The notes beneath the pieces were generated by a model. That model saw only the letters and a program-made list of their open reading frames with translations, was not told the DNA's origin and ran no database searches. A program made the translations under genes and the position numbers. From an uncultured Cytophagales bacterium (GTDB lineage Bacteria; Bacteroidota; Bacteroidia; Cytophagales; JAAEPT01), in NCBI GenBank assembly GCA_963815495.1, contig CAWFGW010000007.1, positions 193,531 to 257,530 of the forward strand: a DNA stretch of 64,000 nt, given 5' to 3'. The stretch's first letter is position 1. The number at the start of each line of letters is the position of its first letter. Below are positions 32,507 through 50,939 of this stretch, one piece after another.

Positions 32507-33106
32507 TAATTTTTAACTATACGAAGTAAATTAAATATACTAATAACTTAAGAATTTAATAAATGTACCTGCAAAAGATTATCACAAAATCAATAATTTG
32601 GTCAACTCCTCACATTTACGAAAAAACAGGTTACTGTTACAGTAATTACTTAAAGGTAGCTAACGTAAGAAAGAATTGTATAAAAACTGCCTTACAATCA
32701 AACTATTAAACACATTATCTTCCGAGAGTTTTAAACAAATACAATATTTCTAGTTGATATTACTGGTAATATATTAATAAATAAATCAAACCATACTGAT
32801 TACCTATTACAAGATTTAACTAGTAGCTATTACAAGTGGAGTTTGTTGTGCAGAGCTAAATAGGACTTGTCTACTTTTAGTAAGTTATAATTGCGCTATT
32901 AAGATGTTTTTATCAAGTAGCACCTATCATAATGGAAAGTCCATAAATTTATTCTTACATTTAATCAACTAAAGCGTTATTAAACGCTTTACTATCCTCC
33001 TATCAAATGTTCTGACAAAAGAACTCAAAAAGATAGTCTACAACCTCAAACAAGCTTATTGAAATTCAAAATTAAAACCAGTTTTTACTTAACTATCCTG
33101 TTATCT

Positions 33107-35215
33107 ATGAACAAAATTTTAAGATTAATTTTCTTACCTCTACTCATTCTCTTTTCCGCTAACAGATCTTATGCACAAGATATTCAGTCGTTAGATTCAC
33201 TTTCGGTTGAAATTGAAATCGTTAATCCCACAACCTCAATCAACGATGGTCAAGTTAGGGTTATGGCAAAAGGAGGCCTTCCACCCTACAACTATCTTTG
33301 GTCCAACCCAAACACCCCTTTAACTGCTGCAAATGCTTCTGGCTTGATTGAAGGTGTGGAATATATGGTAACAGTTACAGATTCTAAAAACCTCCAAGTT
33401 AACCAAACTTTTATTATTGAAGCATCGTCTATCACCGAAAATTTCAATGCCGTATTCAGTCCGTTAGTGACGGTTATGAGCAAAGTTTTGTTTTGGGACC
33501 CTTTTGCAGCGATTGGTTTGTACGACCCCGTGGTCTACACCAATAAAGAAATGGTTAAAACACCCCGTTGGACTGCTACCACAGATAGTATCTTCATTTT
33601 AAAAAAGCAACTTGTTCAAAATGGTGATTTGGTGGAAAAAGGCGATGAAATTGCCATCGTTTCTTTTGCTGAGGGTGTAGTAGACACTGCTAAAGCAACA
33701 ACTGCAGGCAAGGTTAATTTCAATGTCGAGGAGGGTAACGTAATTTTCAGTCCTTACAACACTAAAGACCTAATTGAACAAGGCGCTCAATACTTTGCTA
33801 GCATCTCATTTGAGGAAAAAAGGCCGCTTTTATATCCTAATGGAGAAATTCACAAAAATAGCATTCCCTTTATTGTGGTTTGGTTGATTGTAGGCGCTGC
33901 TTTTTTTACGGTCAAAATGGGCTTCATCAACATTCGTGGGTTTAAGCATGCTATCGACTTAGCCAGAGGAAAATATAATGACCCAAATGCACCGGGAAAA
34001 GTAACACACTTTCAAGCTTTGTCCACTGCAGTGTCGGCAACCGTAGGTTTAGGTAACATAGCTGGGGTGGCTGTAGCTATTTCAATTGGCGGTGCTGGAG
34101 CAACTTTTTGGATGATTTTAGCTGGTCTACTCGGCATGTCCTCTAAATTTGTAGAGTGTACTCTAGGCGTTAAGTATCGCCAAATATCACCAGATGGTAA
34201 GATTTTCGGTGGGCCAATGAACTACCTACGTTATGGACTTGAAAAACGTAAAATCAAAGGATTAGGGAAAGTTTTAGCTGGTATTTTTGCGGTGCTGTGT
34301 ATCGGTGCTTCCTTTGGTGCAGGTAACATGTTTCAGTCTAACCAATCGTATGAGATTATGGCTTCTCAGTTCCCTGTTTTAGAAGGACTTGGCTTTTGGT
34401 TCGGAATTGCATTATCTGTTTTGGTTGGGATTGTGATTATTGGCGGCATTGAAAGCATAGCCAAAGTGACTGAAAAGGTGGTGCCACTTATGGCATTAGT
34501 TTATGTGGTCGCTGCACTTATTATCATTGGAATAAATATCGAAAATGTTGGTGCGGCCTTTTCTGCAATTTACAATGGTGCCTTACACTCCAGCGCCTTA
34601 AAAGGAGGATTTATTGGTGTGCTGATTATTGGATTCCAGCGAGCGGCCTTTTCTAATGAAGCAGGAGTCGGCTCTGCTGCCATAGCCCACAGTGCAACTA
34701 AAACCCATGATGCTCCCTCAGAAGGCTTTGTCGGACTGATGGAGCCTTATATAGACACCGTGGTTGTGTGTACGCTTACCGCTTTGGTGCTTATTTTTAC
34801 TGGCATGCATGAAGTGCCCGGGGTTACTGGTGTGAAACTAACTGCCAAAGCCTTTGGATCAGTAATTTCATGGTTCCCTTATATATTAGCAATAGCAGTA
34901 TTCTTATTTGCTTTTTCTACCATGATTTCTTGGTCGTACTATGGAATGCGGGGTTGGACCTATCTCTTCGGCAAAACCAACCAATCGGAATTAGCTTATA
35001 AAATAATGTTCTTAATTTTTGTGGTTATTGGGGCTTCTGTAAGTTTAGGTGCCGTGCTGGATTTTTCTGATATGATGATACTGGCAATGTCCGTACCCAA
35101 CATGACTGGCTTATATATTATGTCGGGTGAAGTTAAAAAGGATTTAGCAGATTATTTACTTAAAAAGAAAGCTGGTAATTTGGGGAAACCTAATGCAGAA
35201 GTAACTTTAGATTAA
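33107..35215 (+). CDS. Alanine/glycine:cation symporter (AGCS) family transporter with a roughly 260-aa N-terminal extension
   Basis: The track ORF starts at TTG 33059, but ATG 33107 gives a clean signal peptide, MNKILRLIFLPLLILFSANRSYAQ. The core motif GKVTHFQALSTAVSATVGLGNIAGVAVAISIGGAGATFWM is the AGCS signature region. The extension contains a SprB-repeat-like unit (NDGQVRVMAKGGLPPYNYLWSN...YMVTVTDSKN). Confidence 0.85.
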   Translation: MNKILRLIFLPLLILFSANRSYAQDIQSLDSLSVEIEIVNPTTSINDGQVRVMAKGGLPPYNYLWSNPNTPLTAANASGLIEGVEYMVTVTDSKNLQVNQTFIIEASSITENFNAVFSPLVTVMSKVLFWDPFAAIGLYDPVVYTNKEMVKTPRWTATTDSIFILKKQLVQNGDLVEKGDEIAIVSFAEGVVDTAKATTAGKVNFNVEEGNVIFSPYNTKDLIEQGAQYFASISFEEKRPLLYPNGEIHKNSIPFIVVWLIVGAAFFTVKMGFINIRGFKHAIDLARGKYNDPNAPGKVTHFQALSTAVSATVGLGNIAGVAVAISIGGAGATFWMILAGLLGMSSKFVECTLGVKYRQISPDGKIFGGPMNYLRYGLEKRKIKGLGKVLAGIFAVLCIGASFGAGNMFQSNQSYEIMASQFPVLEGLGFWFGIALSVLVGIVIIGGIESIAKVTEKVVPLMALVYVVAALIIIGINIENVGAAFSAIYNGALHSSALKGGFIGVLIIGFQRAAFSNEAGVGSAAIAHSATKTHDAPSEGFVGLMEPYIDTVVVCTLTALVLIFTGMHEVPGVTGVKLTAKAFGSVISWFPYILAIAVFLFAFSTMISWSYYGMRGWTYLFGKTNQSELAYKIMFLIFVVIGASVSLGAVLDFSDMMILAMSVPNMTGLYIMSGEVKKDLADYLLKKKAGNLGKPNAEVTLD

Positions 35216-35432
35216 AAAGAGACAACTTATAGGCTAAGGTACTAATCAACTTATCGACTTAAATTCTAAATCTAAAGAAGCAATTTTCAGTGAAATAAAA
35301 ATATCTTCAAAATCAAAATAACAATACTTTTCACCTAATAGGTAAACTTACAGTTATGTGATATACCGAAACTATATTACAAGAAAAACGGTTGCGTTCA
35401 ATGAATTATAAATAACAAAACTGAGCCAGCTC

Positions 35433-35810
35433 ATGAACCTCGAAGAAAACAAACGCAACGCCATTGCATTTTACAGAACAGCTTATGAAGGAAATCCTTC
35501 AGCTGCGATAGCACAGTATGTTGGAAACGAATACATTCAACATAACCCCGAAGTTGCGGACGGCAAACAAGGGTTTATCAATTACTTTGAACGCATGCAG
35601 CACGAATATGCTGATAAATCCATCGAGTTTGTACGCTGTGTGGCTGAAGGTGATTTAGTCGCATTACACACCCATCAGATATGGCCAGACAATGATCAGT
35701 ATATCACCATGGACTTCTTTCGATTTGATGAAAAAGGTAAAATATGTGAACATTGGGATACGGTTCAACAAATCCCAAAGCACTCCGCCAATCCAAATAC
35801 TATGTATTAA
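35433..35810 (+). CDS. SnoaL-like / NTF2-fold protein
   Basis: 125-aa ORF. NKRNAIAFYRTAYEGNP...YIQHNP...G...F resembles the SnoaL-like (COG4922) family. Confidence 0.7.
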   Translation: MNLEENKRNAIAFYRTAYEGNPSAAIAQYVGNEYIQHNPEVADGKQGFINYFERMQHEYADKSIEFVRCVAEGDLVALHTHQIWPDNDQYITMDFFRFDEKGKICEHWDTVQQIPKHSANPNTMY

Positions 35811-35911
35811 CTAAGCCCATAAGGAATGTAAAAGCAATAAATGATTTGTTAAAATTATTTCTAACCCCAATCAAAAAACTTAATTTTGCCAAAACAACAA
35901 TCAATTGAATT

Positions 35912-36682
35912 ATGGATATCTTTGCGGACTTTAACACTTGGGTAGCGCTTTTAACGCTAATTTTTCTAGAAATAGTGCTAGGTATTGACAACATCATCTT
36001 TATTTCAATTACCACATCCAAACTACCACAGGAATCACAAAAAAAAGCTACCAATCTAGGGTTATTGCTTGCTATGGTGATGCGAATTATTTTGTTATTG
36101 GGTGTATCTTATCTCATTGCCATGAAAGATCCATTTTTCAGCTTTGACCTCGATTACCTTAAAGCAGATATAACGGGGCAAAGTTTAATTCTTCTACTAG
36201 GAGGGATTTTTCTGCTTTACAAAAGTACCAGCGAAATACACCATAAAGTGGAAGGAGCTACTGAAGAAAACACTATAAAAAAAGCTTCAAGTTCATTTAT
36301 CAGCGTCATCATTCAAATTATATTAATAGATATTGTCTTCTCATTTGATTCTGTTCTAACCGCTGTAGGTATGACCAATGGCATCGATGGTGCGTTAACT
36401 ATTATGGTAATTGCTGTGGTGATTTCAGTATTAATTATGATGTTGTTTGCACAACCCGTAAGTAAGTTTGTAAACAAACATCCTACGATTCAGATGTTGG
36501 CGTTGTCATTCTTAATTCTAATTGGCTTTATGTTGGTGACCGAAGGAGCACATTTAGCACATGCTGAGGTGTTTCATCAAGAAGTTGGAGCTATTCCTAA
36601 AGGGTATCTTTATTTCGCTATTGCCTTTTCGCTCGGAATTGAAGCACTGAACTTTAAGATTAGGAAAAATAATAAAAAATAA
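35912..36682 (+). CDS. TerC-family integral membrane protein
   Basis: 256-aa polytopic ORF with LEIVLGIDNIIFISI and a second DIVFSFDSVLTAVG repeat, characteristic of TerC. Confidence 0.85.
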   Translation: MDIFADFNTWVALLTLIFLEIVLGIDNIIFISITTSKLPQESQKKATNLGLLLAMVMRIILLLGVSYLIAMKDPFFSFDLDYLKADITGQSLILLLGGIFLLYKSTSEIHHKVEGATEENTIKKASSSFISVIIQIILIDIVFSFDSVLTAVGMTNGIDGALTIMVIAVVISVLIMMLFAQPVSKFVNKHPTIQMLALSFLILIGFMLVTEGAHLAHAEVFHQEVGAIPKGYLYFAIAFSLGIEALNFKIRKNNKK

Positions 36683-36708
36683 ATCTCTAAAATTCTAGAT
36701 AAACAAAA

Positions 36709-36740
36709 AGACCACCCCTGATGAGGGGTGGTCTTTTTTT
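36709..36740. terminator. Bidirectional Rho-independent terminator between TerC and dapD
   Basis: AAAAA-GACCACCCC-TGATGA-GGGGTGGTC-TTTTTTT, a perfect 9-bp GC-rich stem between convergent stops at 36682 and 36763. Confidence 0.85.
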
Positions 36741-36762
36741 GATTATTAGTTATACAAAAAGA

Positions 36763-37572
36763 TTAAACAGCAACATTGTTCTCTCTTAAAGCCTCATTCA
36801 ACGAAGTTTTCTTGTCTGTAGACTCCTTTCTTTTACCAATTATTAAGGCACAAGGCACATTGTATTTCCCGGACGGAAACTCTTTTTCATACGATCCTGG
36901 AATGACCACTGCACGTTCAGGAACTACCCCCATATGAATGACTGGTTCTGGTCCTGTTACATCGATAATTTTTGAACTCATTGTGAGTGTTACACCAGCT
37001 CCTAAAACGGCTTCTTTACAGACACGAACACCTTCCACAACGATGCATCTGGAGCCGATAAACGCACCGTCCTCAATAATCACTGGAGCTGCTTGTACCG
37101 GTTCTAAAACCCCACCAATTCCAACACCTCCACTTAGGTGAACATCTTTTCCAATTTGAGCACAACTTCCAACAGTAGCCCAAGTATCGACCATCGTTCC
37201 ACTCGAAACATAGGCGCCAATGTTTACATAACTTGGCATTAAAACCGCACCACTTTCGATGTGTGCTCCATACCTTGCAACCGCGTGAGGCACCACTCTA
37301 ACACCTTGTGCTGCGTAATCTTTTTTCAAGGCAATCTTGTCATGAAACTCAAACGGCCCCACTTCAATGGTCTCCATTTTATTAATAGGAAAATATAAAA
37401 TTACTGCTTTCTTCACCCAATCATTTACCTGCCAAGTACCATCACTTTTTGGTTCAGCAGTTCTTAATTTTCCTTTATCTAAAAGTTCAATTACTTCTCT
37501 AATTGTTTGTTGAGATTCTGGCTTTTCTAACAAACTTCTATCCTCCCAAATCTTCTCAATTACCTCTTTCAT
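36763..37572 (-). CDS. dapD: 2,3,4,5-tetrahydropyridine-2,6-dicarboxylate N-succinyltransferase
   Basis: 269-aa ORF with left-handed beta-helix hexapeptide repeats (GAYVSSGTMVDTWATVGSCAQIGKDVHLSGGVGIGGVLEP) and the N-terminal helical domain typical of the short DapD form. Confidence 0.85.
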   Translation of the reverse strand: MKEVIEKIWEDRSLLEKPESQQTIREVIELLDKGKLRTAEPKSDGTWQVNDWVKKAVILYFPINKMETIEVGPFEFHDKIALKKDYAAQGVRVVPHAVARYGAHIESGAVLMPSYVNIGAYVSSGTMVDTWATVGSCAQIGKDVHLSGGVGIGGVLEPVQAAPVIIEDGAFIGSRCIVVEGVRVCKEAVLGAGVTLTMSSKIIDVTGPEPVIHMGVVPERAVVIPGSYEKEFPSGKYNVPCALIIGKRKESTDKKTSLNEALRENNVAV

Positions 37573-37773
37573 TTTTCTCTTTTTCTAATGAACATTTGAC
37601 TTTAAGATTCTAAAATACAACTTTATTTTTGAAGCGACATGATAGACTTTTTAATAATCGTTTAATCTGATTTTTACAGGTATTAAAACCCCTATCAAAG
37701 TCTCTATATAAAAGTTAAATTAGTGCCCTTAAAAGGTTTATAGTATCTTGCAAAAAAGCCCCATATTTCTCGC

Positions 37774-38883
37774 GTGAAAAAAGTCAAAAAAAAAGTGCTC
37801 ATTTCTTCGGTTTTAAAACCGATCAACGACACGCGACTCTATGAAAAAATTGGTCAATCACTTGCGAAGAAAGAAACACTTGAAGTACACATTTGTGGCT
37901 TCCATTCCGACCTACCATCCGACCAAAACATTACCTTTCACCCCCTTTTTCAGTTTAAAAGATTGTCTATAAGTCGCTTTTTACCCTATTGGAAATATGC
38001 AATTTTATTATTTAAAGTAAAACCTGATATAATAATATGTAACACTTTTGAATTACAATTGTTTAACTCATTATACAAAATATTATTTGGTGCGGAATAT
38101 TACTATAATTTAGAAGAAAATTACTTTAAAAACATACGTTACACCACCAATTTCCCAATAGCAGTGCGTTTTGTCTTAGCTCACGCTGTACGACTGAAAG
38201 AGCGCCTACTCCACCCCTTTGTCAACAACTACTTTTCAGCGGAAACCGGTTACCTTTCTGAGATGCCGTTTATACAAAATAAAGCTACTCTTATACTCAA
38301 TAAATTTGCTCCAACCCTCCTCCCAATTGAGCGGTACAAAAGTAGTACAAAAAACCATTTTCTTTACTCGGGGACTATCGCTGAACATTACGGTATTTTT
38401 GATATCATTAAATTCATAAAATCATTACAAATAATCAACCCTGAAATAAAACTTACTATCATAGGTTATTGTGCTAACGAAAAAACATTAAGCGTTGTAA
38501 AAGACATAATCAAAAATCATAATTTCATCGAGCTCATAGGTGGCGATGAACGCGTCAATCATCAGCAAATTTTAGATCAAATTCAAGTAGCTGATTTTGG
38601 GATTATTTGTTACAAAAACAACCCAAGCACAAACAACTGCTTCCCCACAAAACTATATGAGTATTTACATTACCAACTCCCCATCATTAACCTAACAACC
38701 AACACATGGTCAAACCAAAAATTAGTTTCATCAGCCATCTTGGAAATTAACACAGATATTGAAAACACAACTAATGTTTTAGAAAAAATCACATCACACC
38801 TTTTTTACAAAAACAATTACTCCCAAGATATCTACTGGGAGAGTGAAGAGAAAAAATTATTCACCATTTTACGATTAGACTAA
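37774..38883 (+). CDS. Glycosyltransferase (GT-B fold, group-1-like)
   Basis: 369-aa ORF with a GTG start. The C-terminal half has the FPTKLYEY motif (E-x7-E-like region) seen in GT4-type enzymes. The family call is tentative. Confidence 0.5.
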   Translation: MKKVKKKVLISSVLKPINDTRLYEKIGQSLAKKETLEVHICGFHSDLPSDQNITFHPLFQFKRLSISRFLPYWKYAILLFKVKPDIIICNTFELQLFNSLYKILFGAEYYYNLEENYFKNIRYTTNFPIAVRFVLAHAVRLKERLLHPFVNNYFSAETGYLSEMPFIQNKATLILNKFAPTLLPIERYKSSTKNHFLYSGTIAEHYGIFDIIKFIKSLQIINPEIKLTIIGYCANEKTLSVVKDIIKNHNFIELIGGDERVNHQQILDQIQVADFGIICYKNNPSTNNCFPTKLYEYLHYQLPIINLTTNTWSNQKLVSSAILEINTDIENTTNVLEKITSHLFYKNNYSQDIYWESEEKKLFTILRLD

Positions 38884-38890
38884 TTCATTT

Positions 38891-38906
38891 TTTAGAGTTA
38901 CCTAAA
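38891..38906 (+). promoter_or_regulatory. Candidate DtxR/MntR-family operator upstream of the metal-uptake operon
   Basis: Inverted repeat TTTAG-AGTTAC-CTAAA about 20 nt upstream of the regulator start. It only loosely resembles the DtxR-type consensus TTAGGTTAGCCTAACCTAA. Confidence 0.25.
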
Positions 38907-38927
38907 CTTTTCCTTATCTTTACTTTG

Positions 38928-39584
38928 ATGCTTAGTCAAACAGAAGAAAATTACATTAAAGCTATCTACCATTTAACAAATGGAAAAGAGCAAAGTGCTA
39001 CTACAAATGCATTATCAGAAGCGCTAAAAACAAAGCCAGCTTCCGTAAGCGATATGCTAAAAAAGCTGTCGAGCAAAGACCTCATTAACTACGAGAAATA
39101 TAAAGGGGTTTACCTTACCAAAGAAGGCTTAAAAGACGCCTTAAAAATCATTCGAAAACACCGCTTATGGGAAGTCTTTTTAGTGGACAAACTCAATTTC
39201 GCATGGGATGAAGTACATGATATCGCTGAACAGCTGGAGCACATTCAGTCGACCACGCTAACCAACAAACTCGACAAGTTTTTGGGTTACCCAAAGAACG
39301 ACCCACATGGTGACCCCATCCCTACTGCAGAAGGAGAAATCAGTAAACATTATCAACTGACTGTTACTGATCTGGAACCGGACAACAAAGCGGTGGTAGT
39401 CGGTGTGAAAGATTCTTCTGCGTCCTTTTTGCAATACCTTAATAAAATTGGTATCTCCTTAGGTTCCGAACTTTTTGTGCTTGAACAAATCGCCTACGAC
39501 CAAAGCTTAGAAATTCAACTTGAAAACAACAAACAAATCATTTCAAAAGAGGTAGCCAAAAACATCTATGTATCCACTCATTAA
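38928..39584 (+). CDS. DtxR/MntR-family metal-dependent transcriptional repressor
   Basis: ORF 38925..39584, with ATG at 38928. TEENYIKAIYHL, the HTH segment ALSEALKTKPASVSDMLKKL, and RKHRLWEVFL plus a C-terminal FeoA/SH3-like domain match the DtxR family. Confidence 0.85.
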   Translation: MLSQTEENYIKAIYHLTNGKEQSATTNALSEALKTKPASVSDMLKKLSSKDLINYEKYKGVYLTKEGLKDALKIIRKHRLWEVFLVDKLNFAWDEVHDIAEQLEHIQSTTLTNKLDKFLGYPKNDPHGDPIPTAEGEISKHYQLTVTDLEPDNKAVVVGVKDSSASFLQYLNKIGISLGSELFVLEQIAYDQSLEIQLENNKQIISKEVAKNIYVSTH

Positions 39585-40473
39585 AATTTGCCTAATATCT
39601 ACCCTACTTGTATTTTGTTCTTGTTCAGATAACAAACCCAGGTCTGGTAAATTAAAAATTGTGACCACCACAGGAATGATTGCTGATGCGGTAGAAAACT
39701 TGGTAGGCACGCAAGCAGAAGTCACTGCCTTAATGGGACCTGGTGTGGATCCGCACTTGTACAAAGCCGCTCAAGGGGATTTAAAACTCTTACAAGAAGC
39801 AGACATCATTATTTATAACGGATTACATCTAGAAGGGAAGATGACCGACATATTCGAGAAATTATCGCGAATTAAATCGGTGTACGCCATCTCAACAGGT
39901 TTACCCAAAGATCGATTACGCAAGGCAAGCGAACAGGACGCAGTAGACCCTCATATTTGGTTTGACATTGACTTGTGGTCATTAGGTGTTAAAAACCTAA
40001 ATGAGTGGCTTAAAAAGACACAACCAACTATAACTATTTCCACAACTGGCAATGGCTATTTCCAACAACTCGATAGCTTACATCAGGCAACCTTAGCGTC
40101 TATCAATACTATCCCAGAAGGCCAACGCCTCCTTATCACCGCGCATGATGCTTTTGGTTATTTTGGCGATGCGTATGGCATTGAAGTAAAAGGCATTCAA
40201 GGCATCTCCACGGTGGCGCAAGCCGGACTACGGGATGTCAACAACCTCATCAACCTCATTATTGAAAGAAAAATCAAAGCAATTTTTGTGGAGTCGTCCG
40301 TGCCCAAGAAACAAATTGACGTGATTGTTGAATCATGTAAAGCACAAGGACATCAACTCGTGATTGGTGGCACACTGTACTCAGACGCTATGGGTGCTCC
40401 ACAGACCCCTGAAGGTAACTATATCGGTATGGTCACACATAATGTATCTGTCATCGTTAACTCATTAAAATGA
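39568..40473 (+). CDS. Metal (Mn/Zn/Fe) ABC transporter solute-binding lipoprotein, TroA/ZnuA cluster
   Basis: 301-aa ORF with a lipoprotein signal (LLVFCSCS) and metal-ligand motifs DPHLY and DPHIWFD. It overlaps the regulator gene by 17 nt. Confidence 0.85.
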   Translation: MYPLIKICLISTLLVFCSCSDNKPRSGKLKIVTTTGMIADAVENLVGTQAEVTALMGPGVDPHLYKAAQGDLKLLQEADIIIYNGLHLEGKMTDIFEKLSRIKSVYAISTGLPKDRLRKASEQDAVDPHIWFDIDLWSLGVKNLNEWLKKTQPTITISTTGNGYFQQLDSLHQATLASINTIPEGQRLLITAHDAFGYFGDAYGIEVKGIQGISTVAQAGLRDVNNLINLIIERKIKAIFVESSVPKKQIDVIVESCKAQGHQLVIGGTLYSDAMGAPQTPEGNYIGMVTHNVSVIVNSLK

Positions 40474-41258
40474 TAATTCAAGTAGAAAATCCTGCCATTG
40501 AAGTTCATGACTTAACGGTGAGCTATCAAAACAAACCCGTCTTATGGGCGATTGACTTCAGCATTCCCGAAGGAACTTTAGGAGGAATTATTGGACCCAA
40601 TGGTGCTGGTAAATCAACTTTGGTGAAGTCCATTATGGGCTTAATCGAAACCTCCAGTGGTTATGTTAAAATACTGAATCAGGACTTAGCTGATGTGCGC
40701 TTAAAGGTGAGTTATGTGCCCCAACGTGAATCGGTGGATTGGGATTTTCCTGCTTCGGTGTTGGATATTGTGATGATGGGGCGATACGGTAAACTAGGAC
40801 TTTTTAAACGGCCTCAGAAGGCGGATAAAGAAGCAGCAATCGAATGTCTCAATGATGTAGGTATGGCTGAATATGCCAACCGACAAATTGCGCAGCTATC
40901 TGGCGGACAACAGCAACGTGTGTTTTTAGCGCGTGCACTAGCACAAAATGCGGATATCTACTTTATGGATGAACCATTTGCTGGCGTAGATGTAGCAACA
41001 GAACAAGCCATCATTACGCTACTTCAAAAAATGCGTGACGCGGGAAAAACTGTTTTAGTAGTCCACCATGACTTACAGTCTGCTCAACATTATTTTGATT
41101 GGATTGTTTTGCTCAACCAACGCCTTATTGCTTCAGGTCCTATTGAAAAGGTATTTACAGCTGAATTGTTGCAAGAAACTTATGGCGGTAAATTAACTTT
41201 CTTAAGTCAATTAGGAAACTTATTTAAACGAGAGGATTTACCTCCGAGGAAAGCTTAA
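40470..41258 (+). CDS. Metal ABC transporter ATP-binding protein
   Basis: 262-aa ORF with Walker A GPNGAGKST, signature LSGGQQQR and Walker B IYFMDEP. It overlaps the SBP gene by 4 nt. Confidence 0.9.
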   Translation: MIIQVENPAIEVHDLTVSYQNKPVLWAIDFSIPEGTLGGIIGPNGAGKSTLVKSIMGLIETSSGYVKILNQDLADVRLKVSYVPQRESVDWDFPASVLDIVMMGRYGKLGLFKRPQKADKEAAIECLNDVGMAEYANRQIAQLSGGQQQRVFLARALAQNADIYFMDEPFAGVDVATEQAIITLLQKMRDAGKTVLVVHHDLQSAQHYFDWIVLLNQRLIASGPIEKVFTAELLQETYGGKLTFLSQLGNLFKREDLPPRKA

Positions 41259-41285
41259 GTAGTCTTGAGCTTCTTCTCTGTACTT

Positions 41286-41508
41286 GTCATTTCAATCCCA
41301 ATGGATCTGTGGTTATTCTTTCCAATCCCGATGGCTATCGCGGAGAGGAATCTAACTGAGCCAAAGACAACCATCTGTCTCTCAACTATTAGTCAACAGG
41401 AACGCGTTGCAAACGCGCTCCATCGTCTTACTAAATGCAGTTACAAACTGCTAGTACATCAGTAGACTTAAGTTACGCTGAAAAAGCTAAACTTAAGCCA
41501 GAGAGGGG
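41286..41508. repeat. Intergenic mosaic repeat block A1 (partial R1, R5, R3 modules)
   Basis: Starts 28 nt after the ATPase stop. Contains GAGAGGAATCTAACTGAG (41344-41360), GGAACGCGTTGCAAACGCGCTCCAT (41399-41423, identical to 49221-49245) and the roughly 75-nt R3 module (41434-41508, near-identical to 42225-42298). Confidence 0.85.
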
Positions 41509-41745
41509 AGTGATTACAAACAACAAAAAGTAATTGAAGAATGTATTGAAACAGATGAAGAGTTACTCGATGAATACCGCGATACGTTGGATGAGACAGG
41601 CTTAACAGAGGATATGATAGCAATCATTTCTCGACATATGAAAGAAATTGAAGAAACTATCACTGAATTAAAAGAACTACATAAAAAAGGTGACCATGAA
41701 GATTCAAATGCATATAGTACTAAAATTTTAGATGCTGGTGTATAA
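41497..41745 (+). pseudogene. Orphan 3' gene fragment (acidic helical peptide) without a credible start
   Basis: The frame is open from the in-frame TAA at 41494-41496, inside repeat R3, to TAA 41743-41745. It translates AREGSDYKQQKVIEECIETDEELLDEYRDTLDETGLTEDMIAIISRHMKEIEETITELKELHKKGDHEDSNAYSTKILDAGV. The first possible starts are TTG 41587 and ATG 41614. It is followed by its own strong terminator. Confidence 0.35.
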
Positions 41746-41784
41746 TATTCACTGTCATCGATAATTTAAAGCTGGATAAAAAAG

Positions 41785-41824
41785 AACCCCACTTATCGTG
41801 GATGATAAGTGGGGTTTTGTGTTT
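41785..41824 (+). terminator. Rho-independent terminator
   Basis: AACCCCACTTATC (41785-41797), loop GTGGAT, GATAAGTGGGGTT (41804-41816), then TTTTGTGTTT. The 13-bp stem is perfect. Confidence 0.75.
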
Positions 41825-42150
41825 ATAGAACTGTCATTTGCGGATTTTAGGAGCTCTCGGGATGGAAATAATATTGGTGTTTTGCGATGGGTGGATTCCA
41901 GAATATTGTCATTCCTTTTCAGTAGTGTCATTCGTTTTAAATACTGTCATTCCTAGCCTGCCTTGCCGGCAGGCAGGGAACGAGGATCCAACTGAGGCGG
42001 AGACGGATTTTAGACTTACGATTGGTGGATTCTTCCTTCGTCAGAATGACAAATAGGATTTGAATTGTCATTCCTTTCCATCACTGTCATCATTCCGAGC
42101 CCGCCTTGCCTGCAGGCAGGGGACGAGGAATCTAACTGAGGTGGAGACGG

Positions 42151-42215
42151 GTAACATTCGTTTTCAGTACTATTAAGGTCACAAGGACCGCTACGCTTAA
42201 CCTTGCGCCATAGGG
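42151..42215 (+). repeat. R2 module copy A (65 nt)
   Basis: GTAACATTCGTTTTCAGTACTATTAAGGTCACAAGGACCGCTACGCTTAACCTTGCGCCATAGGG. It differs from copy D only at TATT-AA-GG versus TATT-GTA-GG. Confidence 0.95.
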
Positions 42216-42341
42216 TGTGTATTAAACGCAGTTACAAACTGCTACAACATCTGTAGACTTAAGTTACGCTGAAATAGCTAAACTTAAGCCAGAGGGGGTT
42301 AGTCACGCATTACCGTTGCACTCAAATGCGCGCCAGCAGGG

Positions 42342-42397
42342 GTTTCAGTACTATTGTAGGTCACAAGGACCGCTACGCTTAACCTTGCGCCATAGGG
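42342..42397 (+). repeat. R2 module copy B (5'-truncated)
   Basis: TTTCAGTACTATTGTAGGTCACAAGGACCGCTACGCTTAACCTTGCGCCATAGGG, identical to the corresponding part of copy D. Confidence 0.95.
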
Positions 42398-42533
42398 TGA
42401 ATTTGACTCATGGCCATCAATTGCTTTTCACCTCATTCAAATTGACCCGAAAAGTGGTGCGGAACCTACCTTCATCAAAAAACTATTTACTGCCAAGGCA
42501 AAAAACTTCTTTAAAAACAAAATAAGTAGTCCC

Positions 42534-42941
42534 TTGCGAAACAACCCCGCTTATGTGTTTAACCTATTAGACACCAGCACAAAGGTGGATGCAGGTAAAC
42601 TCACCGAACAGCTAAACGAGAAGAAAGAGGAACCTACTATTACCAAAAACCCTTACTCACCTATTAAAGAGGTAGATTTACACATCGAAAACCTACGCGA
42701 AGACTTTGAGTTTTTAAAACCCGAAGAGATTCTCCCTATCCAGCTTGAATTATTTGAAAAAGCACTAGACTCTGCCATTGCTGACAACTGTGATGAAATC
42801 ACGTTTATTCATGGTGTTGGTGCTGGTAAGTTGAAATACGAAATCAGTAAAGTACTCAGCAAACACCCGCATGTGAAGTTTTATCAAGATGCTGATAAAC
42901 AAAAGTTTGGTTATGGTGCAACTAAGGCAACACTTGCGTGA
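42534..42941 (+). CDS. Smr-domain protein, apparently 5'-truncated at a repeat boundary
   Basis: 135-aa ORF from TTG 42534. The C-terminal EITFIHGVGAGKLKYEISKVLSKHPHVKFY matches the Smr domain. The same frame is open upstream to 42396, immediately after an in-frame TAG inside the R2 copy. Confidence 0.7.
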   Translation: MRNNPAYVFNLLDTSTKVDAGKLTEQLNEKKEEPTITKNPYSPIKEVDLHIENLREDFEFLKPEEILPIQLELFEKALDSAIADNCDEITFIHGVGAGKLKYEISKVLSKHPHVKFYQDADKQKFGYGATKATLA

Positions 42942-42964
42942 TAGTTAATTTTAATAGAAGCGAA

Positions 42965-43176
42965 CCTTAGACTTACGATTGGTAGATTCCGGACAAGCTC
43001 CATTCCATTACCGTCATTCCGTAAAATGTGAGAAACGAGCATTTATGCAGAATCTAACTGAGGCGGAGACGAGGTTCTGGCTTACGATGGGCAGATTCCG
43101 GACCTGCCTTGCCAGCAGGCTGGCATGTTTCACTTCGTTGCACAATTCCGGAATGACGTGTGAGAGATGAATGACG
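42965..43176. repeat. Intergenic mosaic repeat block B (R4-type hairpins, partial R1)
   Basis: Contains TTAGACTTACGATTGGTAGATTCCGGAC, CCGTCATTCCG, GAATCTAACTGAGGCGGAGACGAGG, and CTTACGATGGGCAGATTCCGGACCTGCCTTGCCAGCAGGCTGGCATGTTTCACTTCGTTGCACAATTCCGGAATGACG (43081-43158). Confidence 0.9.
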
Positions 43177-43183
43177 TGCTAGA

Positions 43184-44584
43184 CTATTTATTCCCTTGTA
43201 CTAAATACCAATCTACCCATGCATCCATTTGCTTTACTGAGTTGGGTCTTAATAAAATCTCTCGTTTTTCATTTAATAAATACATGGTTGGTGTGCCGAA
43301 AACATAGTAATCTTTTACGGGTGTGCTATTCCATTTTTGATAATCGCAACTGGAAATAAAAGGAAATTCAGATGTGAAATTCTCAAATAACTCTTTGCTT
43401 TCATCGAGCGATATATAGACTACTTCAACACCTTGTGCATTCCATTTTGAATACTGGTTGGCGATTTCAGGAAGCTCTTCTGTACATTTCTGACACCAAC
43501 TAGCCCCAAAAACAACAACCATGTATTTATTCTTTAGGTCAGAGAGTTTATTGGGAGCTTTATTTTGTCCGTATCCTGGAGCAAAATTATCGCCACTGAA
43601 AAGTATGTCAGGTGCTATATTTCCCTTTTTCATGGCTCGGTAACTTTCTAGCTGATTTGCAAGGTCGCTGTTTATGGTGCAGCTTGTTTCATTTAATACT
43701 TTTAATGCTAAATACTCTGAAGCCTTAAACAAACTATGGCGCTCCAATAAATCGAACAGGTAATCGGTAACTTCGTTGAGTTTTTTCTCGTCTTTTGTGA
43801 GACGTTCCATCATGGCATCAATGGAAATTTTCATTTCAATAAACACAGAATCTAAGGAACGACCGCTATTTTCTAATAACCAAAAGTGGTTATCTATGGC
43901 ATCTTTAAATAAACCGCTTTTGTACAATCGCTGATCTGTGTAATCTATCGCTCTAAAGGCGGCTATCGTTGCCGGCATTTCTTCTGGGCGGTATTGTGCA
44001 ACAACGGATACGGAACTTACTAACTTACGTGTAGGCAAAAACCAACTAATGTAGCTGTCGTTAGGTAGCTGATTTAAAAATGATTCATCTTCATCTTTTA
44101 TACGTTGTTTTTCTGATTGAATGGCTTTGTTGGGTGTTTTTTGAACTGTAAATAAAGTGTCTAATTTATAAATTTTCTCTAGGTACACCCAAGCACTCAA
44201 CGCTTGTTCCCTTCGAGGATGCTCTCTGGCGTATTGCTCAAACCATATATTTTCTTGTCCTTTGGCGATTTTTATGGATGCTATATTACTCAAAGACGCT
44301 CCAACTAATTCAATATCCTCGCCACTTAAAATTACAAACAATGGTTTTTCATCAGCCGACATTAGGTAACCGACTCCATAATCGGCTTTAGAATAGGTGA
44401 GTTTAAAATTGCCTTTATCATCAATGGTTGATGATGAAATTGGGTAGGTTGTGAGACCGTTGAAACCTTCAAGTTTAATGGGCTGGTTGGCGAGTTGCGA
44501 TAAATTGCCGATGATGTTTTGTGCACTTAAAAAAGTAGTGCAAAATAGACTTATTAATAGTATTGATAGTATTTTTTTCATCAC
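43184..44584 (-). CDS. Secreted thioredoxin-fold (TlpA-like) thiol-disulfide oxidoreductase
   Basis: 466-aa ORF with a signal peptide and CxxC motif FGASWCQKCTEELPE in the C-terminal thioredoxin fold. The architecture parallels 28928..30418. Confidence 0.8.
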   Translation of the reverse strand: MMKKILSILLISLFCTTFLSAQNIIGNLSQLANQPIKLEGFNGLTTYPISSSTIDDKGNFKLTYSKADYGVGYLMSADEKPLFVILSGEDIELVGASLSNIASIKIAKGQENIWFEQYAREHPRREQALSAWVYLEKIYKLDTLFTVQKTPNKAIQSEKQRIKDEDESFLNQLPNDSYISWFLPTRKLVSSVSVVAQYRPEEMPATIAAFRAIDYTDQRLYKSGLFKDAIDNHFWLLENSGRSLDSVFIEMKISIDAMMERLTKDEKKLNEVTDYLFDLLERHSLFKASEYLALKVLNETSCTINSDLANQLESYRAMKKGNIAPDILFSGDNFAPGYGQNKAPNKLSDLKNKYMVVVFGASWCQKCTEELPEIANQYSKWNAQGVEVVYISLDESKELFENFTSEFPFISSCDYQKWNSTPVKDYYVFGTPTMYLLNEKREILLRPNSVKQMDAWVDWYLVQGNK

Positions 44585-44668: not shown

Positions 44669-45092
44669 GACATTCCTTTTCAATACTGTCATTCCGTTTC
44701 CATTATTGTTATTCTGCTAGCCTTGCCAACAGGCAGGACAAAGGAGGAATCTAATTGAGGAAGAGACGGGTAACATTCGTTTTCAGTACTATTGTAGATT
44801 ACAAGAACCGCTACGCTTAACCTTGCGCCATAGGGGATTCCGGACAAACACTCGTTCCTCGTATTTTCCGGAATGACGTGGTATATTAATCTTGTAACGT
44901 CATTCCGGAATTTCGCAACGAAGTGAAGAAATGTCCGGAATCTCCCTATCGACAACCAGAATGGATTAAAACAAAAAGGAATGCTTTCTTCAAACATTCC
45001 CTTTCTTACTACTTTCCAATAACCGAAGCTACAAGCTTCTCTCGTATTAAAAGACTTAAGCTCACTTCGTAAAGCTTAAGCCAGTTGAGGGG
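44669..45092. repeat. Intergenic mosaic repeat block C (R1, R2, R4 direct, R4 inverted, degenerate R3)
   Basis: R1 ends at 44769, R2 is 44770-44835, R4(+) is 44836-44878, R4(-) is 44898-44961, and an R3-like CTTAAGC...GCTTAAG hairpin is at 45045-45092. Confidence 0.9.
44770..44835 (+). repeat. R2 module copy C (66 nt)
   Basis: GTAACATTCGTTTTCAGTACTATTGTAGATTACAAGAACCGCTACGCTTAACCTTGCGCCATAGGG, with 3 substitutions relative to copy D. Confidence 0.95.
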
Positions 45093-45117
45093 ACAAATCG
45101 CTTCGCTAATCAAAGTA

Positions 45118-46308
45118 TCATTCCTTAAGGCAACGAACAGAGACCCCGACCGCTCGGAGGCTGGTGCCCATGCCGGCATTGCTGCTAATGAAGAAGAGGT
45201 GGCGCGAACTAGTGCTGCTAACCGAACTGCTCCAATAGAGGCCGAAGGTACCGACATTGCTGAGCGAACCATTGCTGTCGAGGCGGCGGCCCGCCATGGG
45301 CAATTTAAGCAGAGAGGCAAAAGCACCTACTCCGTTGTTGCTGCTCCAACTTGTGCGTTCTGCGTTTAATTCTTCTTCTGTAGGTAAACGATACCCACTT
45401 GGGCAAGGGTTGTTTACCCCATTTACGCCTTCCCAAAGATTTAAGTTTTGTGTACTGCGCCAATCGTAATTCCCTGAGTTTACAGTTATAAAGTTACCAT
45501 GCCCTGGCTGATCCGTAGTGCTTAATGTACTAGTAGTTGATGATGTGCGACACTGATGCCCATCTGCACCGCGTCCCCATTGGTATAAATCTCCATAAGA
45601 AGCTGCATCGGTGCTGCTTGTGGCTACCTGTGTAGCACCAAGGTTTCTATCCATCCATGTTTTTCCTGTAATTGGGTTGGTAACATCCACTATTTCAGTT
45701 GGTTCTCCACAATGAACCGTACCAACTGGCCATGGATCCGTTACAGTTCCTCCCCCATTCTCCAAGGCCTCAATTCGCGCAATCAAAGCATCTACATATC
45801 CTTTTGTTACTGCGTCTTTCGCCTCAGTAGGATCAGCTAAATTTTTAATTTGAACAGCACCAGCATCGTTTCCTTGGGTTAATACATTTGTTAACGAAAC
45901 ATTAACGCTACCTGCACTTTTTGCATATTCTGCATAAGGCACTGTCGCAAATTGCATGGTTCCCATTACTACGTAGTTGGTTCCACCGGCTAAGTCCATT
46001 TCGGTGCGTAAGAAGGTGCTGCTTGCGCCCCAGTTAATGGCGTTAAAGTCGTTGCTGCTTGTTCCTTTGCCTACTACTAAGTTGATGATGCCATTCGCAT
46101 CGGAAGTTACGGTATGGGTTTCTGTATAGACTACTGTTCCATTTACTGAACCGGTGGTAATGGATAACCGCAAACCGATGGCTTGGTTGGCTACTAAGTC
46201 GTTGTTGGCGTTGCGAGCCACCGCTTGGTAATTGATTCCTTCGGTTACTTGAGCGAAGGAGAGAACAGCGGTTAAATAAGCTAGGAGAAGGATGGGGATT
46301 TTTTTCAT
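45118..46308 (-). CDS. Secreted Fib_succ_major (FISUMP) lectin-like domain protein with the shared N-terminal GINYQA module
   Basis: 396-aa ORF with a signal peptide. The N-terminal module is GINYQAVARNANNDLVANQAIGLRLSI. The C-terminal half (WMDRNLGA ... YGDLYQWGR ... GYRLPT.EEL ... LKLPMAGRR ... GLYWSSS ... GVSVRC) matches the Fibrobacter succinogenes major paralogous domain pattern. Confidence 0.8.
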   Translation of the reverse strand: MKKIPILLLAYLTAVLSFAQVTEGINYQAVARNANNDLVANQAIGLRLSITTGSVNGTVVYTETHTVTSDANGIINLVVGKGTSSNDFNAINWGASSTFLRTEMDLAGGTNYVVMGTMQFATVPYAEYAKSAGSVNVSLTNVLTQGNDAGAVQIKNLADPTEAKDAVTKGYVDALIARIEALENGGGTVTDPWPVGTVHCGEPTEIVDVTNPITGKTWMDRNLGATQVATSSTDAASYGDLYQWGRGADGHQCRTSSTTSTLSTTDQPGHGNFITVNSGNYDWRSTQNLNLWEGVNGVNNPCPSGYRLPTEEELNAERTSWSSNNGVGAFASLLKLPMAGRRLDSNGSLSNVGTFGLYWSSSVSSTSSRHLFFISSNAGMGTSLRAVGVSVRCLKE

Positions 46309-48970: not shown

Positions 48971-49318
48971 CGACATTCCGCCCGCCTTGCCACGAGGTAG
49001 GGAACGAGGAATCTAACTGAGGCGGAGACGGGTAACATTCGTTTTCAGTACTATTGTAGGTCACAAGGACCGCTACGCTTAACCTTGCGCCATAGGGATT
49101 CCGCAACAAACGCACGGAATGACGTTACATACCCTACCGTCATTCCGGAATTGTGTAGTGTAACGGAAGATGCCTGCCTGCCGGCAAGGCAGGTCCGGAA
49201 TCTCTTGGTCGAAAACTACGGGAACGCGTTGCAAACGCGCTCCATTGGGGGGGGCTGGCTTACGATGGACAGATTCCAGATATTGTTTCTCTTCGTTGCA
49301 CAATTCCGGAATGACGTG
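48971..49318. repeat. Intergenic mosaic repeat block E (R1, R2, short R4, inverted R4, R5, R4), the most complete array
   Basis: R1 is 48971-49031, R2 is 49032-49097, ATTCCGCAACAAACGCACGGAATGACG is 49098-49124, R4(-) is 49138-49203, R5 is 49221-49245 and R4(+) is 49259-49316. Confidence 0.9.
49032..49097 (+). repeat. R2 module copy D (66 nt, reference copy)
   Basis: GTAACATTCGTTTTCAGTACTATTGTAGGTCACAAGGACCGCTACGCTTAACCTTGCGCCATAGGG. Confidence 0.95.
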
Positions 49319-49352
49319 AGAGAGAGGAATAACGTTATGGGTTGGGTTTGTG

Positions 49353-49655
49353 TCATAAAAACTCCCTTACCTCTTCGAATAAATCTTTCCATTCTGGGTT
49401 AAGCTTATTTATCAAGTTTTCTTTCCATTCCCTTCGCCATTTTTTGAGTTCTTTTTCTCTTTCGATGGCTTCTTCTATTGTTTGAAAAATTTCATAATAG
49501 ACTAGGTCTGTACAGTTGTACTTACTGGAAAACGCTGAGCCTTCGCCATTTTTGTGTTGCCAACTGCGAGCTGAAATATTTGATGTCACTCCTGTGTAAA
49601 GGGTTGTTCTGTTTTTGTTTGTGACAATGTAAATATAGCCTCCTTTTGGGTTCAT
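49353..49655 (-). CDS. Small stand-alone GIY-YIG nuclease-family protein
   Basis: 100-aa ORF. GGYIYIVTNKNRTTLYTGVTSNISARSWQHKNG ... EEAIEREKELKKWRREWK has the GIY...YIG/YTG, R, E and N elements of the GIY-YIG (COG2827-like) family. Confidence 0.85.
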   Translation of the reverse strand: MNPKGGYIYIVTNKNRTTLYTGVTSNISARSWQHKNGEGSAFSSKYNCTDLVYYEIFQTIEEAIEREKELKKWRREWKENLINKLNPEWKDLFEEVREFL

Positions 49656-49756
49656 CGTTTTCTATAAAAGTGAAAAGTGAATTTATGATTAAGGTGTTTA
49701 TTTAAATTGTAAATAACAAATTTCTAAAACGTCATTGCATTTTTGTTTAGCGATTG

Positions 49757-49867
49757 AGAGATTCCAGACTTCCGCTACACTGCACCTGCCTGCCGGCAAG
49801 GCTGGTCCGGAATCTGACTGGGATGGAAACAATTGTTTCACTTCGCTACACAATTCCGAAATGACGG
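49757..49867. repeat. Intergenic mosaic repeat block F (composite R4 with embedded GC hairpin)
   Basis: AGATTCCAGACTTCCGCTACACTGCACCTGCCTGCCGGCAAGGCTGGTCCGGAATCTGACTGGGATGGAAACAATTGTTTCACTTCGCTACACAATTCCGAAATGACGG. Confidence 0.9.
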
Positions 49868-49883
49868 TTCTCCTACTTACATA

Positions 49884-50939
49884 CTAATACAACGACTTCG
49901 ACTTCATCAAGTTGATGCGCACACCAACTTTAAAGGTCATAAAATTCAAATTAGACTGATGCGCTGGGAAAAATTCTAAAATCTCGGCTTGGTTTTTTGC
50001 AAAGCTACTGTGGTAATCTAGCTCAGCATAAATCGACCAGTTAGCACTCACCTGATAATCGGCACCGAGACCTGCTTTATAACCTATCATGGAAAATAAA
50101 CCTGTTTGAATTTCTGGTTCTTCACGCTCTATTGATTCTACTAAAATATCGTCTTCCGTTTCCACGCTATATGTTGGCTGAAGTTTACCATTTTCCAATG
50201 ATCGCACATTATAAAACCCTTTTTGGTTGACACCTGCAAAGGAATAGGTTAACCCCACCAAACCGTATGGTCGGAACTTAGCACGTTTGTTCCCGAGATA
50301 ATATTTTGCTTCAACGGCTAGTGAAACTGCTCGAACTTTTAGGTTTTCTTTGGACAGCGGCAACACTTGAATGTTTGCTCCAAAGGAAACATTTGGCGTG
50401 TAATTATATTCACCCCCTAAGCCTAGTGATGGTGCAGGTTGGTAGTTTGCAAATAGGTTTTCAGTTTGCCCTGCACTGTTAAGTTGTTCTTGCTGACCAG
50501 TAACGACCACACCGCTAAACACCGACATACTTACTTTGCTGCCTAAGTCCGATTTGCGCTTTGGATAACTCCCTCTTTTTTTCCGCTTTTTAGCGTGTTT
50601 TCCTCCGTAAAGTGATTTCGATTTCCCTTTTAATGAGTGTTTTCGCTTTCGCTTCACGTAGTTGTCACGCTTTTTACGCTGCGCTTTTCTTTTCTTTAGG
50701 CGTTTATTATTTATTTTAGCCTTTGCTTTTCCTTTCTTGGTAGTCGGTTTATAGGACTTATTTTTCTTTCCTGACTGTCGTCCGATATACTTTTTCTTCG
50801 CGCCATACACCCCTTTTCTGGTATTATTTACACTAAATTGGGCGTGGCTTGATTGGATACTGATAATTACTAACAGTATGACGAGTATTAACTTTGTGAA
50901 AAAGCTAACTAATATTCGTTTATCCCAACCTTTACTCAT
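49884..50939 (-). CDS. Outer-membrane beta-barrel (OmpA-N/OMP_b-brl-like) protein with an extremely Lys/Arg-rich N-terminal region
   Basis: The track ORF starts at TTG 50954. ATG at 50939 gives MSKGWDKR followed by a hydrophobic signal (LILVILLVIISIQSSHAQ). Residues about 45-135 are a K/R-dominated low-complexity tract (KKGKAKAKINNKRLKKRKAQRKKRDNYVKRKRKHSLKGKSK...KKRKKRGSYPKRK). The C-terminal roughly 200 aa show alternating beta-strand patterns ending in an aromatic residue. Confidence 0.6.
   Translation of the reverse strand: MSKGWDKRILVSFFTKLILVILLVIISIQSSHAQFSVNNTRKGVYGAKKKYIGRQSGKKNKSYKPTTKKGKAKAKINNKRLKKRKAQRKKRDNYVKRKRKHSLKGKSKSLYGGKHAKKRKKRGSYPKRKSDLGSKVSMSVFSGVVVTGQQEQLNSAGQTENLFANYQPAPSLGLGGEYNYTPNVSFGANIQVLPLSKENLKVRAVSLAVEAKYYLGNKRAKFRPYGLVGLTYSFAGVNQKGFYNVRSLENGKLQPTYSVETEDDILVESIEREEPEIQTGLFSMIGYKAGLGADYQVSANWSIYAELDYHSSFAKNQAEILEFFPAHQSNLNFMTFKVGVRINLMKSKSLY

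Follow-up and report, generated by a model that had tools for sequence, protein, structure and literature searches.

The BIMEs of Escherichia coli are mosaics of REP units, and their counterparts in Neisseria are the NIMEs, dRS3 and the Correia elements. Such BIME and NIME mosaics are built from short hairpin-forming modules of 20-120 nt, which are combined in varying order and are strictly intergenic. They are clustered between convergent or co-directional genes, and they have been tied to rearrangement breakpoints and to truncated gene copies. A tract of repeats whose architecture appears alike, and which is likewise associated with breakpoints and truncated genes, was found in a stretch of 64,000 nucleotides (64 kb, below called the window) of low-GC (about 37%) Bacteroidota DNA from the genome of an uncultured Cytophagales bacterium. 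Unlike those of the systems named, its repeats resemble no described family in sequence, and a search of Rfam left all of them unmatched, whether the gathering threshold or E ≤1 was applied. The tract also differs from the BIME/RAYT association, since neither a RAYT-type transposase nor an IS element is encoded in the 64 kb of genome covered by the window.

A second comparison is offered by the pseudogene remnants that arise from IS- or repeat-mediated events. The locus shares with them genes that are truncated on the 5' side but keep 3' end and terminator, breakpoints located exactly at repeat edges, and a gene order permuted with respect to relatives. It differs in the lack of any IS or transposase, the repeats being small non-coding modules, and in the state of one fragment, from an Smr-family gene, which is undecayed in appearance and unusually divergent. 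The interval of 1.9 kb between the gene of an ABC transporter ATPase and that of a thioredoxin-like protein would represent a non-coding mosaic of young hairpin-forming modules at a synteny breakpoint. Two dead gene fragments would be embedded in it, namely the last ~79 codons and the terminator of a gene of the DUF2383/PA2169 family, and the last ~181 codons of an Smr-family gene of about 315 aa. The locus is probably an ordinary repeat-associated rearrangement scar which holds these two displaced dead 3' fragments, while the lack of permease genes next to the ATPase would be older and the permeases would be encoded elsewhere.

Three genes of a metal-uptake operon precede the tract on the plus strand. 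They encode a metal-dependent regulator of the DtxR/MntR family (38925-39584; domains Fe_dep_repress, Fe_dep_repr_C and FeoA), a solute-binding protein (SBP) of the ZnuA/TroA/MntC type (39568-40473; PF01297, E 6.5e-67, full-length profile match) and an intact ATPase of a Mn/Fe/Zn-type ABC transporter (40470-41258). Their assignment to a TroA/ZnuA-type importer, proposed earlier in a sequence-only reading of this DNA, was borne out by the Pfam and NCBIfam searches. The best NCBIfam match of the ATPase was PRK15056 (manganese/iron ABC transporter ATP-binding protein), below the equivalog cut-off. The window thus shares with the cluster A-I importers (TroABCD, MntABC, SitABCD) an MntR/DtxR regulator, an SBP of the ZnuA family and an ATPase of the Mn/Fe type, and the order regulator-SBP-ATPase is the same as in Pontibacter, Ekhidna and other Cytophagales. 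Those importers carry one or two ABC-3 permeases (PF00950) in the operon, whereas the operon of the window has none.

The comparison with the closest relative (contig L049) showed protein identities of 95% for the regulator and 98% for the ATPase. The dN/dS values were 0.026 for the regulator, 0.040 for the SBP and 0.013 for the ATPase, with dS of 0.76-0.98, and by this measure the three genes appear to be under strong purifying selection. They belong to a syntenic block of 5.5 kb (TerC-dapD-GT-regulator-SBP-ATPase, window 35803-41257) which is 85.6% identical to L049 at the nucleotide level, and synteny with this relative breaks at both ends of the block. The ATPase gene closes the block: its stop codon occupies positions 41256-41258, nucleotide synteny stops at 41257, and 1.9 kb without any long ORF comes next.

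The repeats of this interval are arranged in three clusters. Repeat cluster 1 (41259-41506) contains a degenerate GTCATTC...GAATCTAACTGAG module (about 41287-41380), hairpin H (41399-41423), which is identical to 49221-49245, and the first copy of R3 (41429-41507, 79 nt). Repeat cluster 2 (41825-42395) contains 19-nt GTCATTC units (41905-41957), A modules (41947-42006 and 42090-42150), one copy of R2 (42161-42217) and the second copy of R3 (42220-42298), which is separated by a unique spacer of 44 nt from another copy of R2 (42343-42397) at the end of the cluster. Repeat cluster 3 (42961-43183) is composed of CTTACGATNGG-GATTCCGGAC, GAATCTAACTGAGGCGGAGACG and TCCGGAATGACG modules and reaches the stop of a convergent gene of 466 codons on the minus strand (43184-44584), assigned by Pfam to a thioredoxin-like protein of the TlpA/AhpC type. 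This is the first intact gene past the tract.

It was found that the repeats are real, lie at the positions given for them in the sequence-only reading and occur far above chance expectation. The 28-nt core of R2 is present in 4 exact copies against 0 expected, and TCCGGAATGACG in 9 copies against 0.05 expected. The two copies of R3 (79 nt) are 91% identical, a composite of 118 nt formed by an A module and R2 recurs at 93% identity, and 42 nt of R2 (42176-42217) recur at 42358-42399 with 100% identity. The repeats recur in further intergenic regions, limited to the part of the window between 41.3 and 52.0 kb, and are absent from every fetched locus of relatives; they are judged to be young and lineage-specific. 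Folding against shuffled controls gave z = -3.95 for R3 and z = -3.05 for hairpin H, and the structure of the R2 unit by itself was not significant (z -0.40). Short, imperfectly palindromic units were found in varying combinations and in intergenic DNA only, as in a mosaic of the REP/BIME or NIME type.

No pair of terminal inverted repeats (TIR) bounding R2 or R3, as would be expected of a MITE, was found in a repeat search of the window; L049, by contrast, has an element of 341 nt bounded by inverted repeats of 30 nt. Target-site duplications, which would point to mobile repeat units, were not evident at the two junctions between repeats and gene fragments. The cores of R2, R3 and the A module gave no match in viral contigs, and a phage origin is therefore not indicated. 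Inside the repeat clusters a single nuclease gene was seen, a GIY-YIG ORF of 100 aa on the minus strand (49353-49655). A literature search returned nothing specific on these repeats or on DUF2027-Smr proteins.

The region between repeat clusters 1 and 2 contains the 3' remnant of a gene of the DUF2383/PA2169 family (41507-41745, plus strand), which codes for a four-helix bundle and of which codons ~84-162 of 162 are left. An in-frame TAA (41494-41496), followed by an orphan frame open to 41745 with a TTG start at 41587 and by a terminator with a perfect stem of 13 bp, had been described here, and each of these elements was found again, the terminator hairpin with its T-run at 41783-41824. The frame of 82 aa (41497-41745) shows 87% protein identity to about residues 81-162 of a 162-aa protein encoded in a related contig (L081:11085-11573), and the remnant is 85.4% identical at the nucleotide level to L081 11335-11580. 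The 162-aa protein was assigned by Pfam and NCBIfam to PF09537 and TIGR02284, with the full domain at residues 3-112 (profile positions 1-110); the fragment retains only a partial domain and alone gives no match to PF09537. The homologue search carried out with the 82-aa orphan peptide returned nothing, despite the existence of the 87% identical L081 protein, so that the family assignment was made via the locus of the relative. Nucleotide homology begins at 41506/7, i.e. at the last base or two of R3, and a start codon is absent at the homologous position. The stop codon and the intrinsic terminator are retained; a terminator is also present at the equivalent position of L081, with a different sequence.

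The second remnant (42396-42941, plus strand) comprises codons ~135-315 of an Smr-family gene of about 315 codons, with the Smr domain intact. Its frame is closed upstream by an in-frame TAG (42393-42395) and is open from 42396, as had been read from the sequence before, and the only ORF which can be called in it starts at the TTG at 42534 and runs to 42941 (135 aa). The frame of 181 aa shows 83-85% identity to the closest three Smr proteins of ~315 aa. The search with this extended frame, suggested in the sequence-only reading, returned homologues of 315 aa at 99% query coverage. The Smr domain (PF01713) is located at residues 119-180 of the frame (E 2.3e-11), and many more distant members of the ~315-aa family carry DUF2027 together with Smr. 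Homology begins at 42396 and shares two bases with the end of the R2 copy. On the 3' side the stop and about 20 nt are kept, and repeats restart at ~42961. The N-terminal ~134 codons were found nowhere in the window on comparison with the loci of relatives. The idea that both open frames derive from real genes truncated at their 5' ends is supported by these data, the full-length proteins having 315 aa (Smr) and 162 aa (DUF2383) and the homology starting in both cases at the repeat edge.

The Smr fragment is unusual in its divergence. Its nucleotide identity is 74-76% to each of three related contigs (L081, L082 and L083), while the 3' part of the gene is 79.5% identical between L081 and L082, and the shared loci of these two contigs are ~81% identical. 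The DUF2383 fragment is 85% identical to L081, against 74% for the Smr fragment and the closest relative; the genome average is 85.6%. Synonymous sites of the Smr fragment are saturated with respect to L081, yet its 181 codons contain zero stops or frameshifts and only 3 unique residue changes, all conservative, at positions otherwise invariant in five homologues. Slow decay of an orthologous copy does not fit a fragment which is divergent yet undecayed, and it may be that the fragment is not the in-lineage orthologue. The pattern would fit a divergent allele that was truncated very recently, or else an additional copy from a foreign or paralogous source. An intact protein of 315 aa (P0104), 92% identical to that of L049 over the C-terminal 181 residues compared, hints at an intact Smr copy elsewhere in the genome from which the window comes.

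The parent genes are found together in relatives. An intact Smr gene followed by DUF2383 was observed in four related contigs (L081, L082, L083 and L084), of which L081 belongs to the same MAG contig as L049, and the context TamB-DUF2279-(...)-Smr-DUF2383-LTD is conserved. None of the flanking genes TamB, DUF2279 and LTD occurs in the window. In the contig of the closest relative about 62 kb separate the Smr locus, at 488 kb, from the ATPase, at 552 kb. The order in the window is swapped with respect to the relatives, the DUF2383 remnant preceding the Smr remnant on the same strand, and the 5' ends of the fragments lie 0-2 nt from the 3' edge of R3 (DUF2383) or R2 (Smr). Since the parent genes are located at another locus and their order is swapped, the fragments appear to have been brought here rather than truncated in place. 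No gene remnants besides these two were detected in 41259-43183 when this interval was compared by tblastx with all fetched loci.

Displacement is not limited to the tract. A GAF gene (30506-32506) lies 3.3 kb upstream of the syntenic block (start 35803) in the window; in the closest relative it is ~69 kb away, and the Smr-DUF2383 locus falls inside those 69 kb. The thioredoxin-like gene has no match in L049 or L081, and the downstream genes of the window show no synteny at the protein level with those downstream in either contig. Judged from this gene order, the region is a rearrangement hot spot.

The absence of permease genes was considered separately. A tblastn search of the 64 kb with two ABC-3 permeases of Pontibacter detected no such gene, the sole match being the Fe_dep_repr_C domain of the regulator, similar to one that permease 1 carries as a fusion, and no PF00950 or other permease was present among the 16 ORFs scanned with Pfam out of 32 of at least 150 aa. 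The earlier statement that the window lacks a permease ORF therefore stands. Genome loci with the ATPase were retrieved in a number of 80, and in ~70 of them two permease genes follow directly after it, the first permease being fused to a DtxR-like metal-binding domain. The full order dapD-GT-regulator-SBP-ATPase-perm1-perm2 is present in two metagenome contigs (L088 and L090). In Ekhidna one locus (L034) keeps the order as far as the ATPase, and another (L037) has perm1 and perm2 right behind the ATPase. This full order appears to be ancestral for the wider group. A permease profile search built on 12 sequences gave 7,411 matches, the best 120 of which all belonged to Ekhidna, Reichenbachiella, Pontibacter and related Cytophagales lineages. 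Solitary ATPase genes of the same family were seen in other Bacteroidota contigs (L019, L029, L052, L086 and L087).

In L049, too, the ATPase stop codon marks the end of synteny, and the gene is not followed by a permease; the 341-nt MITE-like element mentioned above, unrelated to the repeats of the window, is found there, and then a PorP/SprF gene. A metagenome scan returned no relative closer than L049, the best match being ~71% identical. Another contig (L044) has kept the order dapD-GT-regulator-SBP-ATPase, with dapD 85% identical; a small ORF begins 13 nt past the ATPase stop, and neither repeats after the ATPase nor a permease within 10 kb were found. The transporter proteins of L044 are not nearer to those of the window than the Ekhidna proteins are, and it is uncertain whether its permeases disappeared in an independent event or in one ancestral loss common to L044, L049 and the window. 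The repeats were proposed in the sequence-only reading to have removed the permease, with the proviso that relatives without repeats should have it. L044 without repeats, and L049 with a different repeat element, both lack it, and this part of the proposal is not supported. Permeases do follow the ATPase in most relatives, L049 and L044 are without them, and Smr sits at another locus in all relatives examined. Because the repeat copies are 91-100% identical and dS for the split between window and L049 is ~0.8-1.0, the repeats appear younger than the permease loss. The absence of permeases is judged to be a separate and older feature, common to the closest relative, which would predate the current repeat copies of the window. 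The regulator, SBP and ATPase genes seem to stay functional, and for this reason permeases are expected at another site in the genome.

The history of the tract can be proposed as follows. Repeat units were most likely inserted into, or recombined with, the Smr and DUF2383 genes. Recombination between dispersed repeat copies would then have split the 3' parts from the 5' parts and joined the 3' parts at the present site. At least three events would be required, i.e. two breaks at repeat edges and a permutation or translocation. The breakpoints, the homologies and the permuted order are observed; from them we infer the order and the type of the events.

The most direct alternative was that repeats entered an original ATPase-permease-...-Smr locus, deleted the permease(s) and truncated the neighbours in place, which corresponds to the earlier view that at least three genes had been deleted or truncated here. 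The repeat tract begins 28 nt past the ATPase stop, exactly where most relatives have two permease genes, and both remnants adjoin repeat edges. This explanation has nevertheless become very improbable, since the repeat-free L044 and L049 with its unrelated MITE-like element are likewise without permeases, since the repeat copies are far younger than the split between the window and L049, and since Smr and DUF2383 neighbour this operon in no relative examined. From the earlier view the two truncations at repeat edges are retained, and neither the permease loss nor truncation in place is. A chimeric join at the repeats, introduced by the assembly, deserves mention as the source looks like a MAG contig and as frameshift errors occur in related assemblies of the same project. 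It is barely credible, however, because long-read assemblies are not misjoined by modules as short as 20-120 nt, because such a join would still need repeats inside intact genes, and because L049 and L044 independently show the synteny break past the ATPase.

The origin and fate of the fragments leave more room for other explanations. It is possible, though doubtful, that both are duplicated or horizontally acquired extra copies which the repeat array trapped or carried along, and that the native locus still has Smr and DUF2383 in intact form. Three relatives are about equally distant from the Smr fragment, whereas L081/L049 are nearest to the genome as a whole (85.6%). The saturated synonymous sites of the fragment are combined with very few and conservative unique changes and no stops, and the intact protein P0104 would be the product of the native gene. 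The link between P0104 and the genome of the window is circumstantial, however, the DUF2383 fragment behaves as an ordinary orthologue, and a second copy of neither gene is visible in the 64 kb. It is tempting to speculate further that the modules form an active non-autonomous mobile system which captures and shuffles 3' gene fragments by a Pack-MITE-like transduplication, perhaps mobilised by the GIY-YIG protein (49353-49655), with a foreign or paralogous Smr fragment imported together with the repeats and an intact Smr-DUF2383 locus elsewhere, but such a system is considered very unlikely. The 135-aa ORF might, on the other hand, be a functional stand-alone Smr-domain gene which was kept by selection after loss of the N-terminal domain. 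Its Smr domain is intact, the 181 codons are free of stops and frameshifts and show few unique substitutions, and the public record lists it as a gene (P0005). Conservation extends undiminished over the 46 codons that precede the TTG, which a recent truncation explains better than a new start; the start itself is a TTG, with 138 nt of remnant coding sequence directly upstream and repeats before that. Two apparent short homologues (P0061 and P0105) were rejected as natural stand-alone Smr proteins, as both are frameshift-split full-length genes, P0061 having an ORF of 137 aa directly upstream; another short homologue (P0077) has just a 43-aa ORF upstream. A stand-alone function is on these grounds unlikely, and the scar with two displaced dead fragments is the reading preferred here.

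As regards annotation, the publicly recorded 135-aa "Smr" ORF would be a truncated remnant, and the 52-aa ORF at 41587-41745 would be the tail of a DUF2383 gene. The pattern of missing permeases in the clade may reflect an old split of the ABC importer operon that is tolerated by selection, so that the metal-uptake operon would be split rather than broken. Neither the annotation nor the biology would surprise a specialist, as this is a known kind of genome scar in a fresh example. The locus would provide a clean, base-resolved case in which short intergenic repeats specific to one lineage mark a rearrangement hot spot in the genome of an uncultured Cytophagales bacterium.

The R2 copies at 42176-42217 and 42358-42399 of the window, which lie 182 nt apart, were found to be 100% identical over 42 nt, and this identity takes in the dinucleotide 'TG' that at the second copy is part of the Smr reading frame. 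The remaining two R2 copies continue differently after the shared part. The identity weakly suggests, on the basis of just two extra nucleotides, that local duplication or conversion took place here very recently, once the junction between R2 and the Smr remnant already existed. A degenerate third R3-like copy, GACTTAAGCTCACTTCGTAAAGCTTAAGCCAGTTGAGGGG, spotted by eye only, is located at 45050-45095, just downstream of the stop codon of the minus-strand gene 45118-46308.

The closest relative carries, directly 3' of the ATPase gene, a 341-nt element unrelated to the repeats of the window (L049, the ATPase locus, 10927-11267). This element has 30-nt inverted repeats at its ends (93% complementary) and 77-nt direct repeats inside, and it resembles a MITE. 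Comparison with this locus and with the intact Smr-DUF2383 locus, L081 (contig_10399, 547 kb and 478 kb, respectively), showed a second synteny break at 32592-35802 of the window. The GAF-domain gene (30506-32506) is separated from the block running from TerC to the ATPase by 3.3 kb in the window, with a Na:alanine symporter gene between them, and by about 69 kb in the closest relative, where the intact Smr-DUF2383 locus sits within this interval.

In the related operons the first ABC-3 permease is fused at its C-terminus to Fe_dep_repr_C, a DtxR-like metal-binding/dimerisation domain, giving a product of about 427 amino acids (L002:10959-12242 in one relative, with an equivalent gene in most related loci). 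This fusion explains why the sole tblastn match of the permease query in the window was the DtxR/MntR-type regulator (38925-39584).

Frameshift-split Smr-family genes are present in related long-read metagenome assemblies, namely at L165:2572-3543, a locus of another relative (137 and 180 amino acids), and in the homologue P0105 (ENA contig of 23,691 bp), whose N-terminus is out of frame. Both frameshifts are probably sequencing errors, and short gene calls from these assemblies should be treated with caution.

The repeat cluster at 48980-49885 encloses a minus-strand ORF of 100 amino acids for a GIY-YIG nuclease (49353-49655; PF01541, E 1.4e-17), flanked by modules of the same families as those of the tract at 41259-43183. 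Neither the rest of the window nor any of the retrieved loci contained another copy of this ORF. The GIY-YIG ORF could be a selfish element tied to the repeats.
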